Notes under the pieces: generated by a model
The model's database searches: none
Told to the model about the DNA's origin: nothing
Seen by the model: the letters and a program-made list of their open reading frames with translations, nothing else
In this document: piece by piece, positions 5,746 to 63,413 of the stretch
Numbering within the stretch: the stretch's first letter is position 1
Layout: each line of letters begins with the position of its first letter
Sequence record: NC_019399.1
Source: Escherichia phage vB_EcoM_ACG-C40
DNA length: 64,000 nucleotides
Reading direction: 5' to 3' (one strand)
Program-made: the position numbers and the translations under genes

Positions 5746-6555
5746 ATGCTTAAAGAACAACTGATTGCTGAAGCGCAAAAAATTGATGCTTCCGTTGCTC
5801 TTGATAGTATTTTCGAATCAGTTAATATTTCTCCGGAAGCAAAAGAAACTTTCGGCACTGTATTCGAAGCTACCGTCAAGCAGCACGCCGTTAAATTAGC
5901 TGAATCTCATATCGCTAAAATTGCTGAAAAAGCAGAAGAAGAAGTAGAAAAAAATAAAGAAGAAGCAGAAGAAAAAGCTGAGAAGAAAATCGCTGAGCAA
6001 GCTTCTAAATTCCTTGACCATCTTGCAAAAGAATGGCTCACTGAAAATAAATTAGCAGTAGATAAAGGTATCAAAGCCGAACTGTTTGAATCCATGCTTG
6101 GTGGATTGAAAGAGCTCTTCGTTGAACACAACGTTGTTGTTCCAGAAGAATCAGTTGATGTTGTAGCTGAAATGGAAGAAGAACTGCAAGAACATAAAGA
6201 AGAATCAGCTCGTCTGTTCGAAGAACTCAATAAGCGTGACGCATATATCAATTATGTGCAGCGTGAAGTGGCATTGAGCGAAAGTACTAAAGATCTGACT
6301 GAGTCTCAAAAAGAAAAAGTCTCTGCTCTGGTCGAAGGTATGGATTATTCAGATGCATTCTCAAGTAAATTGAGTGCAATCGTAGAAATGGTGAAGAAAT
6401 CTAATAAAGATGAAAGCACTATTACTGAGAGTATAAATACTCCTGATACTGAAGCAGCCGGACTGAATTTCGTCACTGAAGCTGTAGAAGATAAATCTGC
6501 ACAAGGTGCAGAAGATATTGTAAGTGTATATGCGAAAGTCGCATCTCGTTTCTAA
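5746..6555 (+). CDS. 22: Major prohead scaffolding core protein gp22
   Basis: 269-aa acidic coiled-coil-like ORF, matches T4 gp22 length and position. Confidence 0.9.
   Translation: MLKEQLIAEAQKIDASVALDSIFESVNISPEAKETFGTVFEATVKQHAVKLAESHIAKIAEKAEEEVEKNKEEAEEKAEKKIAEQASKFLDHLAKEWLTENKLAVDKGIKAELFESMLGGLKELFVEHNVVVPEESVDVVAEMEEELQEHKEESARLFEELNKRDAYINYVQREVALSESTKDLTESQKEKVSALVEGMDYSDAFSSKLSAIVEMVKKSNKDESTITESINTPDTEAAGLNFVTEAVEDKSAQGAEDIVSVYAKVASRF
6432..6439 (+). promoter_or_regulatory. Late promoter TATAAATA inside gene 22, upstream of gene 23
   Basis: Exact TATAAATA about 135 nt upstream of the gene 23 start. Confidence 0.5.
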
Positions 6556-9530: not shown

Positions 9531-10535
9531 TTAACTTACCAATTCAATCCAAGCCGGACGAAGTACATCTTGTACCATTTTAACTAATTCCTTCTTAATC
9601 AAAGAAGGATTATCCGCTTGAGTTAGAGTAATACCTTCACGAGAAGTTTCTTCCAAAATATCTTGAACAGTTAGCCCCATCACCTTTCCAAAATCTTTTG
9701 GACCAATTTCACCAATTTTAGAAATAACGTTATTTACTCGGTTCAGTGTAACGTAGCAAGCTAAAATTCCCACCAATTTGTTATCAGCTTCTGATAGTTC
9801 AACTTTAGCTTTAATAGGCTTATCAGACTTTTTCTTTTCACTAAATTTGGAATTCTTGCATTTGATGGCTACACGATTTCCATTATGAAGTCAAGAAGGA
9901 TAACAAGGTTTCAATACATATCCTTCAGCGGTAAATACTTCGCCTTTGGCTTCAGCTTTCCAAACACATTTGTTAGCGTCAACTAATCCAGCATGGTCTA
10001 CTGTAAAATTATAATCTTGGACGACAGAATCTAAATCATTTGGCAATTTAATAAGCTCTTCAAATTTACCGCGACCTAAAAGTGGAGCCATTTTAAATTT
10101 AAATGTATTACAAAATGATTCCATCATATAATCATCGACATAAGTCACATCACCACTTTCTGTAGTGACAATAATGTCAAATACATAAAAATCTTTATCG
10201 CCATAATCGACATTCTTCTGAATGCCAGGTCCAGCGAATTCGCCAAAGACTTGATAAGATACAACCGCTGAGGTTTCCATAATATCTTGTACTGCTTTAA
10301 TAGAATCTTCGTAATTCTTTAGAATAATTTCATACCCAAAGAAATCTTCAGCAGGAAGAATCGGTCCAGTACGTTTAGCGCAAGTTACTTTATCACGCTC
10401 AATAATCAATGAGAAATTTGTGCCGTGAATCTTTTCACGAGCTACCCACTCCCCACCAGTCAATCCCAAGCTATAAAGTTTTTCAATAAATTTAGAGTTG
10501 TAATGATTTTCAAGACTGCTATACTTTTTAAACAT
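9531..10535 (-). pseudogene. rnlB: RNA ligase 2 (rnlB) interrupted by an in-frame TGA
   Basis: ORFs 9891..10535 (214 aa, KIHGTN adenylyltransferase motif) and 9531..9776 are in the same frame; a single TGA at 9891-9893 separates them; 214+1+38+81 = 334 codons, the recalled T4 Rnl2 length. Confidence 0.8.
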
Positions 10536-11081: not shown

Positions 11082-11109
11082 CAAAATGAAGAAAGGGGCC
11101 GAAGCCCCT
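11082..11109 (-). terminator. Rho-independent terminator downstream of hoc
   Basis: On minus strand GGGGC-TTCG-GCCCC hairpin followed by TTTCTTCATTTT. Confidence 0.6.
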
Positions 11110-11126
11110 TATGATTATGATTATGA

Positions 11127-12258
11127 TTATGGATAGGTGTAGATGATACCAGTTTCTAAAGCAGTTTTATGAATGATGTATCCATTGCGTGATTCTTGAA
11201 CATCAACTTCTGGATAGTCTTTCATCATCTTCTGAAGAGTGTAACGATGCAGGTAGTATTTACTGTCTGGATCTTCAGTTTTCCAATCTTTACCTTCTTC
11301 GGTCATTTTTTGGATTTCATCCATAACCCACCAACCGCACCAGATATAAGCTGAAGTACGATGTGGAAGAGGATGAACATAAGGTAGTTCACCTTCTGGT
11401 TCTGGAGCAACTTTATCAGTTACCTGAACTTGACCTTCTGCTGTAATAGTTTTGCTATCATAATCAGTTGCAGTAACGACAGCAGTAACTTCAATAGTTT
11501 GACTTCCAACAGATGAGGTATCGACAGTATATACGTTAGTTGACCCTTCTACAGGAGAAGAATCTTTCTTCCATGAGTAAGTAATTTGTGCTTCTTCTGG
11601 AGCACCCGTAACATTAGCCGTAAATGTAGCCGAAGCATCTTGCTGAACATTAATAGAAGGAGGAGTCAATGTAACCTGTGGATTCATTGTCTTCTTATTA
11701 ACTGTCAATGATACTTCATTAGAAGTAACTTCCTTTTCATTGTAATTTTCAGCAGTTACTTGCGCTACACACTTGATTTTTTTTAACTCCACTTGTGTCA
11801 GGAGTGTAATTGAATGTAGCGTCAGTTGCTTTGTCTACAGGAGAACCGTCAACGTGCCATTGATACGTAGGGTTTGCACCTGATGGCTGTGAAGCTAAGG
11901 CAGCGGTAAATTCAATTGGAGTTCCAATCACTCCAGCATCAGGGCTACCAGGAGTTACAGCTAAAGTAGTTGTTTGTGTCTTATTTTGAACTGTGATAGT
12001 TGTACTAATTTCTGCTGTTTCAGGTTCAGATTCTGCAACTTGATTGGTTGCAACTACTTTAATAGTCTTTTGACCGGCAGGTCCTTTTAGTACATAACTA
12101 AAAGTTGCTGACGTTTCTTCCTGTGGAGCGTCGTCTACAGTCCAAGCATATGTAATAGATCCATCTCCAGTTTGACCACTGGGTGTAGCAGTAAACTGCT
12201 GAGTCTGATCTATAACTCCAGTAGGTGTTTTAGGAGTTATATCAACTGTAAAAGTCAT
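11127..12258 (-). pseudogene. hoc: Head outer capsid protein Hoc, frame broken by a +1 shift in a homopolymer
   Basis: N-terminal ORF 11749..12258 (169 aa, MTFTVDITPKTPTG...) and C-terminal ORF 11127..11792 (221 aa) overlap in different frames; the junction is a run of 8 T at 11777-11784; removing one base joins them. Confidence 0.75.
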
Positions 12259-12267
12259 AAGTTATCC

Positions 12268-12948
12268 TTATTTTAATGTTACGAAAGAAGAGTTGCGTGT
12301 TTCACGAATTAAAACTGATCCGTCACGGTTAATGTAATAAATTAAGCTAAATAAAGTTTGGTGTGCTGACGCATGTTCAAAACTAGTTGGGTGAGATTTC
12401 CAATCAGGAGTTTCAGCAATCCATTGATAAATCCACCAAGGAACAGTACAGAATCCTGGATTTTTTCCAATCAACTGAAGATTCGGGCTAAAGTTTTCCG
12501 GAAGAGTAAATACAGACGGCTTTTCAGATTCAATAATCTCAGCTACAGCCTGTTCAAATTTTTCTTCAACAAATGGAGTATCTTCAATCAAAACATCGGT
12601 ATTTTCAGGAATTTTATCTGTTTCTACTACTTCAATTTTAATGTCAGATTTAACCGGAGAATCAATCAAAAGTGCTGCTTCTGGATTGACTTCTTCATCG
12701 TCATATTTTAACCCCTCTGCAGCATCAGCAGCATCAATTAAGTCTTTAATAGATAACCCATCAGTCTCCGGCATAGGTTCACTAGCGAGCTTCTGGAGGG
12801 CTTCTTCAATATCAACAACGATATTATCAAAAGATTTATTCTTTTTGACCTTTATACCAAACTGTTCAGCATATTCAGCTAATTTAGCTTTAGCTTCTTT
12901 GTTATCATCAAGAGCCTTCAGCTCTGCAATATAATCTTTATCTATCAT
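12268..12948 (-). CDS. inh: Inh-like protein (inhibitor of prohead protease), by position
   Basis: 226-aa acidic ORF between hoc and segE; synteny-based. Confidence 0.65.
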   Translation of the reverse strand: MIDKDYIAELKALDDNKEAKAKLAEYAEQFGIKVKKNKSFDNIVVDIEEALQKLASEPMPETDGLSIKDLIDAADAAEGLKYDDEEVNPEAALLIDSPVKSDIKIEVVETDKIPENTDVLIEDTPFVEEKFEQAVAEIIESEKPSVFTLPENFSPNLQLIGKNPGFCTVPWWIYQWIAETPDWKSHPTSFEHASAHQTLFSLIYYINRDGSVLIRETRNSSFVTLK

Positions 12949-12997: not shown

Positions 12998-13615
12998 ATG
13001 TACCACTTTGTATATGAAACAACAAATCTAATAAATGGTAAAAAGTATATAGGAAAACACTCTACTGATGACTTGAATGATGGTTACCTTGGTTCCGGTA
13101 AGGCAATTCAGCAGGCTATAAAGAAATATGGTGAAAACAATTTCTCTAGAACAATACTAAAAGAGTTTAAAACTTCCGAAGAAGCGTACATGTATGAAGA
13201 AGAAATTATAACTCCTGAAATAATAAAAAGCAAAAATTATTATAATATGAAACCTGGCGGAATTGGTGGAATTGTTATGACTACAGAGGTTATAGCAAAG
13301 ATGAAAGAATCTTCCGCTAAGAGATTTGAAAACTCACCGGGCACGGTATTAGGTACAACTTGTTACACTAATGGAACTAAAAATATTTTTATTAAGCCTG
13401 GAGAACTTGTTCCAGAAGGATTTGTAAAAGGGATGGTTCATCCTAATAGAAAGTCCAGAAAAGGATGTAAAGTCAAACCGACTACCACAGGAACTTTTTG
13501 GGTCAATAATGGTGCAATAAATAAATTAATACAACCAGACGGTATTATTCCCGACGGATTTATTAAAGGTCGTCTCATGAAAAGAGATTCTAAAGGCAAA
13601 TTTAGTAAGGCATAA
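12998..13615 (+). CDS. segE: GIY-YIG homing endonuclease SegE-like
   Basis: 205-aa ORF with N-terminal YHFVYETTNLINGKKYIGKH (GIY-YIG motif); T4 has segE between hoc and uvsW; late promoter TATAAATA at 12962-12969. Confidence 0.8.
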   Translation: MYHFVYETTNLINGKKYIGKHSTDDLNDGYLGSGKAIQQAIKKYGENNFSRTILKEFKTSEEAYMYEEEIITPEIIKSKNYYNMKPGGIGGIVMTTEVIAKMKESSAKRFENSPGTVLGTTCYTNGTKNIFIKPGELVPEGFVKGMVHPNRKSRKGCKVKPTTTGTFWVNNGAINKLIQPDGIIPDGFIKGRLMKRDSKGKFSKA

Positions 13616-13617
13616 TT

Positions 13618-15126
13618 ATGGATATTAAAGTACATTTTCACGACTTCAGTCATGTACGCATCGATTGTGAAGAGAGCACGTTCCACGAATTAAGAGATTT
13701 CTTTTCGTTTGAGGCCGATGGATATAGATTTAACCCTCGCTTCAGATATGGCAACTGGGATGGACGAATTCGTCTTTTAGATTATAATCGCCTTCTTCCA
13801 TTCGGTTTAGTCGGGCAAATTAAAAAGTTCTGCGATAACTTTGGCTATAAAGCCTGGATTGACCCACAGATTAACGAAAAAGAAGAATTATCAAGAAAAG
13901 ATTTTGATGAATGGCTTTCTAAATTAGAAATCTATTCAGGAAATAAAAGAATTGAACCGCATTGGTATCAAAAAGATGCAGTGTTCGAAGGATTAGTTAA
14001 TCGTCGTAGAATTCTTAATCTTCCAACATCCGCAGGTAAATCTTTAATTCAAGCTTTGCTTGCTCGGTATTATTTGGAAAATTATGAAGGCAAAATTCTT
14101 ATTATTGTTCCAACAACTGCTCTGACAACTCAGATGGCTGATGACTTTGTTGACTATCGTTTATTCAGTCATGCAATGATAAAGAAAATCGGTGGTGGAG
14201 CATCAAAAGATGATAAATATAAAAATGATGCACCGGTCGTTGTTGGTACATGGCAAACTGTAGTAAAACAACCGAAAGAATGGTTCTCACAGTTTGGAAT
14301 GATGATGAATGATGAATGTCATCTTGCTACAGGAAAAAGTATTTCATCTATCATATCAGGTTTAAATAACTGCATGTTCAAATTCGGTTTGTCTGGTTCA
14401 TTACGTGATGGCAAAGCCAATATCATGCAGTATGTTGGAATGTTCGGTGAAATATTTAAGCCAGTAACGACCTCTAAATTAATGGAAGATGGACAAGTAA
14501 CTGAGTTAAAAATTAATAGTATTTTTCTTCGCTATCCCGATGAGTTCACTACTAAATTAAAGGGAAAAACTTATCAAGAAGAAATAAAAATTATTACTGG
14601 GCTTAGTAAAAGAAATAAATGGATCGCTAAATTAGCTATTAAGCTTGCGCAAAAAGATGAAAACGCTTTTGTCATGTTTAAACATGTATCGCACGGTAAA
14701 GCTATTTTCGATTTAATTAAAAATGAATACGATAAAGTTTATTACGTATCAGGGGAAGTTGATACCGAAACCCGCAATATAATGAAAACCTTAGCTGAAA
14801 ATGGTAAAGGAATAATTATAGTAGCGAGTTATGGTGTATTTTCTACTGGTATTTCAGTTAAAAATCTGCATCATGTTGTTTTAGCGCACGGTGTTAAATC
14901 TAAAATTATTGTATTGCAAACAATAGGTCGCGTATTACGTAAGCATGGTTCTAAGACAATAGCAACAGTCTGGGACCTCATAGATGACGCGGGCGTGGTT
15001 TCTAAATCAAAAACATCTTCTAAAAAATACTCGCATTTAAACTATCTTTTAAAACATGGACTTGATCGTATTCAGCGTTATGCTGATGAAAAGTTTAATT
15101 ATGTGATGAAAGAGGTTAAACTTTGA
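13618..15126 (+). CDS. uvsW: UvsW DNA/RNA helicase
   Basis: 502-aa ORF starting MDIKVHFHDFSHVRIDCEESTFHEL with helicase motifs; matches T4 UvsW. Confidence 0.95.
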   Translation: MDIKVHFHDFSHVRIDCEESTFHELRDFFSFEADGYRFNPRFRYGNWDGRIRLLDYNRLLPFGLVGQIKKFCDNFGYKAWIDPQINEKEELSRKDFDEWLSKLEIYSGNKRIEPHWYQKDAVFEGLVNRRRILNLPTSAGKSLIQALLARYYLENYEGKILIIVPTTALTTQMADDFVDYRLFSHAMIKKIGGGASKDDKYKNDAPVVVGTWQTVVKQPKEWFSQFGMMMNDECHLATGKSISSIISGLNNCMFKFGLSGSLRDGKANIMQYVGMFGEIFKPVTTSKLMEDGQVTELKINSIFLRYPDEFTTKLKGKTYQEEIKIITGLSKRNKWIAKLAIKLAQKDENAFVMFKHVSHGKAIFDLIKNEYDKVYYVSGEVDTETRNIMKTLAENGKGIIIVASYGVFSTGISVKNLHHVVLAHGVKSKIIVLQTIGRVLRKHGSKTIATVWDLIDDAGVVSKSKTSSKKYSHLNYLLKHGLDRIQRYADEKFNYVMKEVKL

Positions 15127-38431: not shown

Positions 38432-40019
<1,588 letters not shown>

Positions 40020-48150: not shown

Positions 48151-48178
48151 AATAAAAAAAAGGGACCTCTAGGGTCCC
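48151..48178 (-). terminator. Rho-independent terminator after gene 32
   Basis: On minus strand GGGACC-loop-GGTCCC followed by TTTTTTTTTATTT. Confidence 0.75.
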
Positions 48179-63194: not shown

Positions 63195-63413
63195 TTATGT
63201 TTTGCGACTAAATTGTTCATAGTGCTGAATTACCTCTCTTAAACATTTGCATGTGAATGAAAACTTTTTAGCTACACCACATTCAAATATATGTTCTCTT
63301 AAATCACGTGTATCAGTATATCCCATCTCAACAATAAAATGCCTTATTAGATTTTTATCTTTATCATTGAGAGAATTAAAATAATCAGATTTTGAATTAA
63401 TTTCCCTGGCCAA
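63195..63413 (-). CDS. Hypothetical protein (arn.x-like)
   Basis: 72-aa ORF. Confidence 0.45.
   Translation of the reverse strand: MAREINSKSDYFNSLNDKDKNLIRHFIVEMGYTDTRDLREHIFECGVAKKFSFTCKCLREVIQHYEQFSRKT

Follow-up and report, generated by a model that had tools for sequence, protein, structure and literature searches.

Runs of A in the rIIB and lysozyme genes of phage T4 are classical frameshift hot spots of the Streisinger model. Homopolymers of at least 6 nt in the phages T2, T4, and T6 have been shown experimentally to be hypermutable, reversible contingency loci, with reversion at the A9 tract of T2 agt and at the tract of T4 rIIA about 1,000-fold more frequent than in a point mutant (Gomez, Barrick & Waters, bioRxiv 10.1101/2025.10.21.683753). 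The hoc gene is not discussed in the text of that preprint; its supplement lists the T2 hoc tract as A6, with 0 variant reads out of 2,238 (bioRxiv 10.1101/2025.10.21.683753). The hoc locus described here resembles agt and rIIA in that a run of A lies inside the ORF of a dispensable T-even gene and shows indels of one base, in both directions and as the sole lesion. However, experiments on agt and rIIA measured an elevated rate that was reversible, as well as a selective benefit, whereas the evidence for hoc is its pattern across genomes.

The phase-variable surface genes of Neisseria, Haemophilus, and Campylobacter (PMC5084427) provide a second parallel. As in hoc, an intragenic mononucleotide repeat differs in length between close relatives and sets the frame, and the proteins concerned are, like Hoc, surface exposed, immunogenic, and dispensable. 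In the bacteria, where switching has been measured, most tracts consist of G/C and the usual length is greater; in contrast, the hoc tract is short (7 nt) and its variation is read from sequences only. A third parallel is found in the "pseudo-pseudogenes" (Baranov et al. 2005, PMC1088944), in which, as in hoc, an ORF is broken at an A/T run and RNA polymerase slippage could rescue some of the transcripts. Such transcriptional rescue is documented for runs of 8 to 9 A, and selection against slippage-prone runs is evident at 9 nt in a large share of bacterial genomes (PMC1088944), so that the hoc run of 8 is marginal with respect to the 9-nt threshold.

Hoc consists of three N-terminal Ig-like domains followed by a C-terminal capsid-binding domain (PMC10385173). 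In the T4 mutant HAP1, hoc carries C496T, which creates an ochre codon at position 166, and the capsids are without functional Hoc (PMC10580926). HAP1 and the allele described here both cut Hoc at ∼43 to 44% of its length, before Ig domain 3 and the capsid-binding domain, but the HAP1 lesion is a laboratory-selected point nonsense mutation that has no easy route back by slippage.

The split hoc of Escherichia phage vB_EcoM_ACG-C40 is already published, as two CDSs and a comment by the depositors in 2012, and homopolymer hot spots and contingency loci in T-even phages are a known class. What appears to be unreported in the searchable literature is the cross-phage pattern at the hoc tract, with breakage in both directions, on many backgrounds, and in T2 as well as T6. 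No statement that T2 or T6 lack Hoc owing to the tract was found in that literature. Early electron-microscopy work reportedly depicted T2 capsids without accessory proteins; this is not counted as evidence here.

Division of hoc between Two Reading Frames in the ACG-C40 Record

The window analysed is a 64,000-nt stretch of the ACG-C40 genome (record NC_019399.1), in which hoc lies on the minus strand at its conserved position between inh and the genes 24.3/24.2/rnlB. The features of the locus are as follows:

11127..12258, minus strand: whole hoc gene, 1,132 nt (1,131 nt in intact relatives)
12265..12270, minus strand: Shine-Dalgarno-like TAAGGA 5′ of the hoc ATG, read from the sequence
11749..12258, minus strand: hoc N-terminal ORF, 169 aa, ending in ...TSGVKKNQVCSASNC and a stop
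11777..11784, minus strand: A8 tract (T8 on the plus strand), spanning hoc codons 159 to 161
11127..11792, minus strand: hoc C-terminal reading frame, +1 relative to the N-terminal ORF and open from a GTG at 11792
11095..11108, minus strand: GC-rich stem-loop GGGGC TTCG GCCCC, then a T-rich stretch, 3′ of the hoc stop

An earlier note on this DNA had reported a run of eight T at which a +1 shift breaks hoc, and direct reading of the plus strand at 11777-11784 confirms T8, within GATTTTTTTTAAC. The coding strand reads GGA GTT AAA AAA AAT CAA GTG TGT at the tract. As the note had also stated, the gene is split into two frames that overlap at the run; in the ORF list this overlap extends over 11749-11792. 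The N-terminal ORF spans Ig-like domain 1 and the greater part of domain 2, is without the capsid-binding domain, and includes among its 169 residues a tail of nine that are out of frame (NQVCSASNC). In the C-terminal frame, homology to Hoc begins right past the tract; this part comprises what remains of Ig domain 2 together with Ig domain 3 and the capsid-binding domain. The deposited N-terminal product is AFH20141.1 / YP_006986733.1 and the deposited C-terminal product, AFH20140.1, has 186 aa counted from an internal ATG (MNPQ...); AFH20141.1 and AFH20140.1 both bear the name "head outer capsid protein."

The tract insertion is the sole lesion in the ACG-C40 hoc. Deletion of one A gives a single ORF that ends in ...TALETGIIYTYP and has 376 aa, the length that the note had anticipated, and phages UKE3-1 and teqhad have an intact Hoc that is 97.6% identical to this repaired one. 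The Shine-Dalgarno-like TAAGGA before the ATG indicates that the translation signals of the gene are intact. The stem-loop 3′ of hoc is, from its sequence, probably a terminator, and a "terminator" feature is annotated under a 1,201-nt match to the hoc region in five related records. Directly past the hoc stop, at 11110-11130, lies a hexamer repeat, TAATCA on the minus strand, with a TAA in each unit; its copy number varies, and the window is 12 nt longer here than T6 and 6 nt longer than UKE3-1.

Alleles of the Tract in Related Phages

The hoc genes of UKE3-1 (97.9% DNA identity) and teqhad (96.3%), the closest in the phage collection, are intact and have A7 at the tract, encoding GVKKIKC. 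Intact relatives in general carry A7, read as GTT AAA AAA ATC (V K K I), and T4-type alleles carry AAAAGAA (K-R). Besides these intact forms, we found alleles that are one base too long or one base too short. An A8 tract is present in IME537, in the Logan assembly ERR3531242, in the ENA/Logan "GUPT19" contigs, and in Logan SRR34396944, and NHEP10 has A8 in a second copy of the tract. The 8-nt form AAAAAGAA occurs in two independent T6 records and in PM105. A megablast search with a tract-specific 38-mer found A6 in GenBank in six T2 records and the RefSeq copy, SV76, UPWr_E2, 101117BS1, and PM107/PM108, and A6 is also present in the assemblies ENA ERZ15186015 and Logan SRR29423813. The off alleles occur both in contigs labelled as metagenome assemblies and in cultured isolates, and they lie on several flank haplotypes and domain architectures.

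As sequenced, two of the three classic T-even phages are broken at the hoc tract, in opposite directions, T6 by +1 and T2 by −1. The T6 gene, entered in the records as two CDSs or left unannotated, resembles that of ACG-C40 in its +1 shift at the same tract, its length of 1,132 nt, and a gapless alignment between the two. The T6 reading past the tract, GTT AAA AAG AAT TAA, is one base too long and runs into the stop; however, the tract is interrupted by a G, leaving a run of A5, and for this reason it should be less prone to revert, and its flanks belong to another haplotype. The gapless alignment had raised the possibility that the T6 and ACG-C40 frameshifts descend from a common ancestor; this was rejected as the simplest reading, since the immediate flanks of the ACG-C40 tract are those of the A7 alleles in UKE3-1 and teqhad and differ from T6. 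The ACG-C40 allele as a whole has a UKE3-1/teqhad-like background, unlike both T6 and T2. The T2 hoc is broken at the same tract as well, but by −1 (A6), and it has two further frameshifts. With three frameshifts in hoc, T2 looks like the carrier of an old, decayed pseudogene.

T2 is the exception in this respect. In 10 alleles (ACG-C40, T6, IME537, ERR3531242, GUPT19, SRR29423813, UPWr_E2, 101117BS1, PM107, and NHEP10) a one-base repair of the tract gives a full-length ORF, of 376 aa or, in five-domain forms, of ∼470 aa. The A8 allele of ERR3531242 and the A6 allele of 101117BS1 differ by 4 substitutions in 1,420 nt and by the 2-nt difference in the tract; the occurrence of A8 and A6 on backgrounds that are 0.3% diverged implies at least two slippage steps. 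The protein collection, searched with the 169-aa fragment, gave the same picture: 11 of 14 clusters of truncated Hoc N-terminal fragments end at the tract, five in the +1 frame (..GVKKN and a stop, or ..GVKKNQVCS..) and six in the −1 frame (..GVKKSSV or ..GVKKLSV and a stop), and only three clusters are truncated elsewhere in hoc.

The tract was broken in 4/44 full-length rows of an evenly spaced sample of all matching records and in 4/48 records of one haplotype group. Roughly 8 to 9% of the sampled records are thus broken at the hoc tract by sequence, an estimate from two samples, each with some duplicate records, out of ∼600 to 700 records in total. Broken alleles shared by recombination could inflate the count of independent events. 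Three JGI metagenome contigs with the tract were found, all A7, too few for a frequency in nature. A pattern scan of IMG/VR gave 80 loci, nearly all of them chance matches to the short degenerate pattern; three carried hoc. A 168-kb ENA scaffold with an identical 186-aa C-terminal ORF was considered as a second broken allele and was rejected: it carries A7 at the tract, and a stretch of scaffold Ns interrupts its hoc.

Hoc also varies in length and in its number of Ig-like domains (283, 376, and ∼470 aa), and in-frame deletion forms of 164 and 182 aa occur. The five-domain form has a second copy of the tract, usually AAAAGAA. PM105 (MZ234041.1) carries AAAAAGAA in the first copy of the tract (hoc nt 471-485) and A6 in the second (nt 760-772). 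The two lesions cancel in length, so the gene is as long as that of its intact sibling PM123, and misaligned gene conversion between the repeated domains is a possible origin of the pair.

Homopolymers of the Window and a Possible Base-Calling Error

The ACG-C40 genome was obtained by 454 pyrosequencing at 195 to 930× coverage, and its authors state that they proof-read the file of the annotated genome (depositors' 2012 publication). Since 454 pyrosequencing miscalls long homopolymers, the true tract might be A7 and hoc intact, with the consensus over-calling the run by one base. The nearest relatives do have A7, and the exact ACG-C40 N-terminal product was found on one contig only, the GenBank record itself. 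We examined the run in the context of the other homopolymers of the window.

Dinucleotide-preserving shuffles of the window predict 30.6 ± 8.0 A/T 8-mers, and two are observed. With 8-base A/T runs so strongly depleted, the hoc run is not a chance product of an AT-rich genome. Only four runs of at least 7 nt occur in the 64 kb. The other 8-mer (48154-48161) is noncoding and adjoins a GC-rich inverted repeat 3′ of the gene-32 ORF, so the hoc run is the sole coding 8-mer in the window and its longest coding homopolymer. Alignment with the syntenic region of T6 (MH550421) was possible over ∼60 kb of the window. Both coding A7 runs (5948-5954 and 39496-39502) agree with T6, and among ∼370 coding runs of at least 5 nt, a count taken from a crude gene model, no other frame-broken coding homopolymer was found in the aligned ∼60 kb. 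The absence of a frame-breaking indel from all these runs speaks against a 454 error in hoc, but as the hoc tract is the longest coding run, clean shorter runs do not fully clear it.

The alignment revealed seven 1-nt differences from T6 in T runs of 4 to 6 nt, all intergenic (9523, 31103, 31475, 32525, 47797, 49107, and 57084), which adjoin GC-rich inverted repeats or fall in the spacers between Shine-Dalgarno-like sequences and start codons. The sole coding 1-nt difference in run length from T6 lies at ∼14680 in uvsW, which in the window (13618..15126) is an intact gene of 502 aa and in T6 is interrupted by a 1-nt deletion relative to the window (TTTAAAC to TTTAAC), giving uvsW and uvsW-B. 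Between inh and uvsW both the window and T6 have a GIY-YIG homing-endonuclease gene (12998..13615; segE in T6), which is absent from UKE3-1, otherwise the closest relative.

The window contains two other inactivating lesions. The rnlB gene (RNA ligase 2, minus strand) has an in-frame TGA at codon 215 (9891-9893), where T6 has TGG (Trp). Its ORF pieces lie at 9891..10535 and 9531..9776 on the minus strand, and it is otherwise collinear with the 334-aa T6 protein, with four amino acid differences. Decoding of this UGA by tRNA-Trp would give back the wild-type residue. Near 63217, a 2-nt (GA) deletion relative to T6 cuts an ORF of the arn region (63195..63413, minus strand) to 72 aa; its T6 homolog, RB32ORF249c, has 104 aa. 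A substitution and a 2-nt deletion are not errors of the 454 type. Judged by these sequences, ACG-C40 carries real lesions in genes other than hoc, rnlB included, and its record is not generally unreliable, points that also count against an over-called hoc run.

The deep coverage and the proof-read file argue in the same direction. The +1 state of the tract is also seen in other phages and in assemblies that come from different laboratories and sequencing runs, and breakage at the tract affects roughly 8 to 9% of the sampled relatives. A 454 consensus miscall of a 7-mer at such depth is probably no commoner than this breakage frequency. Taken together, an over-called A7 in ACG-C40 is unlikely, and A8 is likely to be real. 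The earlier note had named an artefact, a real hoc-null variant, and a slippage-prone switch as the alternatives; this was the correct set, and real slippage at a recurrent hot spot now ranks as the most likely among them, as many relatives, sequenced independently, have A6, A7, or A8 at this tract.

Suggested Recoding at the Run

The depositors of ACG-C40 (2012) suggested programmed recoding, that is, a functional split in which +1 ribosomal frameshifting or transcriptional slippage yields short and long forms of Hoc in a set ratio. Several features of the site are compatible with such an event: the sequence A AAA AAA A would allow perfect re-pairing of tRNA-Lys after a +1 slip, a Shine-Dalgarno-like GGAG lies 2 nt 5′ of the run, and in other systems runs of 8 A are known to support productive transcriptional slippage (PMC1088944). 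However, the GGAG is formed by conserved Gly-Val codons and is present in all the in-frame alleles too, and the 0-frame A-site codon, AAT, is neither slow nor a stop.

The comparison between phages provides further arguments against recoding. The split arrangement is not conserved, most homologs being in frame with A7 or AAAAGAA, and the length of the run is not fixed, ranging from 6 to 8 among relatives where it is not interrupted. A varying run length was proposed as the mark of replication slippage as opposed to purposeful slippage (Baranov et al. 2005, PMC1088944). Typical runs for programmed slippage have a conserved length of at least 9 A/T and stand at the ORF junction in all homologs, whereas the hoc run has 8. 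In addition, A6 alleles, which need the opposite shift, are as common as +1 alleles, and the HAP1 protein of T4, truncated six codons further on, leaves a capsid without Hoc. Programmed frameshifting is therefore not supported by the sequences, and we consider a functional split highly improbable. The tract instead emerges from the sequence comparison as a recurrent hot spot for indels of one base across Tequatrovirus, not a designed frameshift.

Proposed Loss of Hoc by Replication Slippage

The indels do not extend beyond the run, are found repeatedly and in both directions, and, T2 excepted, are the only lesion, which is the pattern of slippage. We propose that a slipped-strand insertion during replication converted A7 to A8 and so produced the hoc-off allele of ACG-C40. 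The slippage would be that of DNA polymerase according to the Streisinger model, for which measurements have been made at other T2 and T4 homopolymers. In the recorded sequence, translation that begins at the usual start ends after 169 residues, ∼43% of the protein, with loss of Ig domain 3 and the capsid-binding domain. A product that ends its Hoc sequence at residue 160 and continues for nine out-of-frame residues would not be expected to bind the capsid, and by analogy with HAP1 the ACG-C40 virions would have no Hoc or almost none. That replication slippage gave rise both to the hoc-off allele and to capsids devoid of Hoc is, in our judgment, a probable account.

We also considered whether a capsid-binding fragment might be made by internal initiation at the MNPQ ATG. 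This is unlikely: the Shine-Dalgarno-like sequence there (TAAGAAG) is weak, a late-promoter-like site is not present, and HAP1 is without Hoc. Slippage of RNA polymerase at the A8/T8 run may put a small fraction of the transcripts back in frame. As the repeat indel is the only lesion, the off state could revert, and it would in principle be reversible. The comparative data fit a "switch" in the limited sense of a hypermutable, potentially reversible tract.

Neutral Hot Spot or Selected Switch

A stronger version of the slippage explanation, rather than an alternative to a real lesion, is that the tract is a selected contingency locus. Here A7 would be kept as a switch of capsid decoration that hedges between Hoc+ virions, which might be favored for instance in adherence to mucus or other surfaces or in aggregation, and Hoc− virions. 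Several observations are consistent with this idea. The two off states, A6 and A8, are each seen again and again, on many backgrounds and with no second lesion, and they are found both in metagenome-labelled assemblies and in cultured isolates; long A/T runs have otherwise been eliminated from the genome; and contingency loci have been demonstrated in phages for agt and rIIA.

A neutral hot spot in a dispensable gene accounts for all that was observed. AAA is the usual Lys codon in these AT-rich genomes, and so the sequence V-K-K-I yields A7 without any selection. T4-type alleles, with AAAAGAA (K-R), do without the run, and T2 went on to three frameshifts, which is decay and not switching. The sole read-level datum for the tract, from one T2 population, likewise counts against the idea: all 2,238 reads at the A6 form were free of variants, and variation there is not elevated. 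We regard selection for a switch as quite unlikely.

If the tract were truly phase variable, it would toggle frequently, and every population would contain a mixture of Hoc+ and Hoc− virions differing in mucus or surface adherence, aggregation, and antigenicity, a mixture kept by bet-hedging; we give this little credence. The corollary that T2 and T6 are laboratory lineages caught in the off state, with T2 fixed in it, appears similarly doubtful. Replication slippage at a hot spot remains the preferred reading of the ACG-C40 allele.

Implications

For the ACG-C40 record on its own, the finding is a minor matter, as it concerns a known and published split gene. Its wider meaning lies in the roles of Hoc, which is the main display scaffold of T4, a dominant antigen, and the proposed tether of T4-like phages to mucus and other surfaces. 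Should about one in ten of the sequenced Tequatroviruses, T2 and T6 included, lack Hoc owing to a single slippery run, comparative and therapeutic work that assumes Hoc would need to check the tract. Annotation pipelines should, if the present reading is true, flag the tract rather than call two "capsid and scaffold" genes, and phase variation of surface decoration in a phage would be directly testable at a defined 7-nt site.
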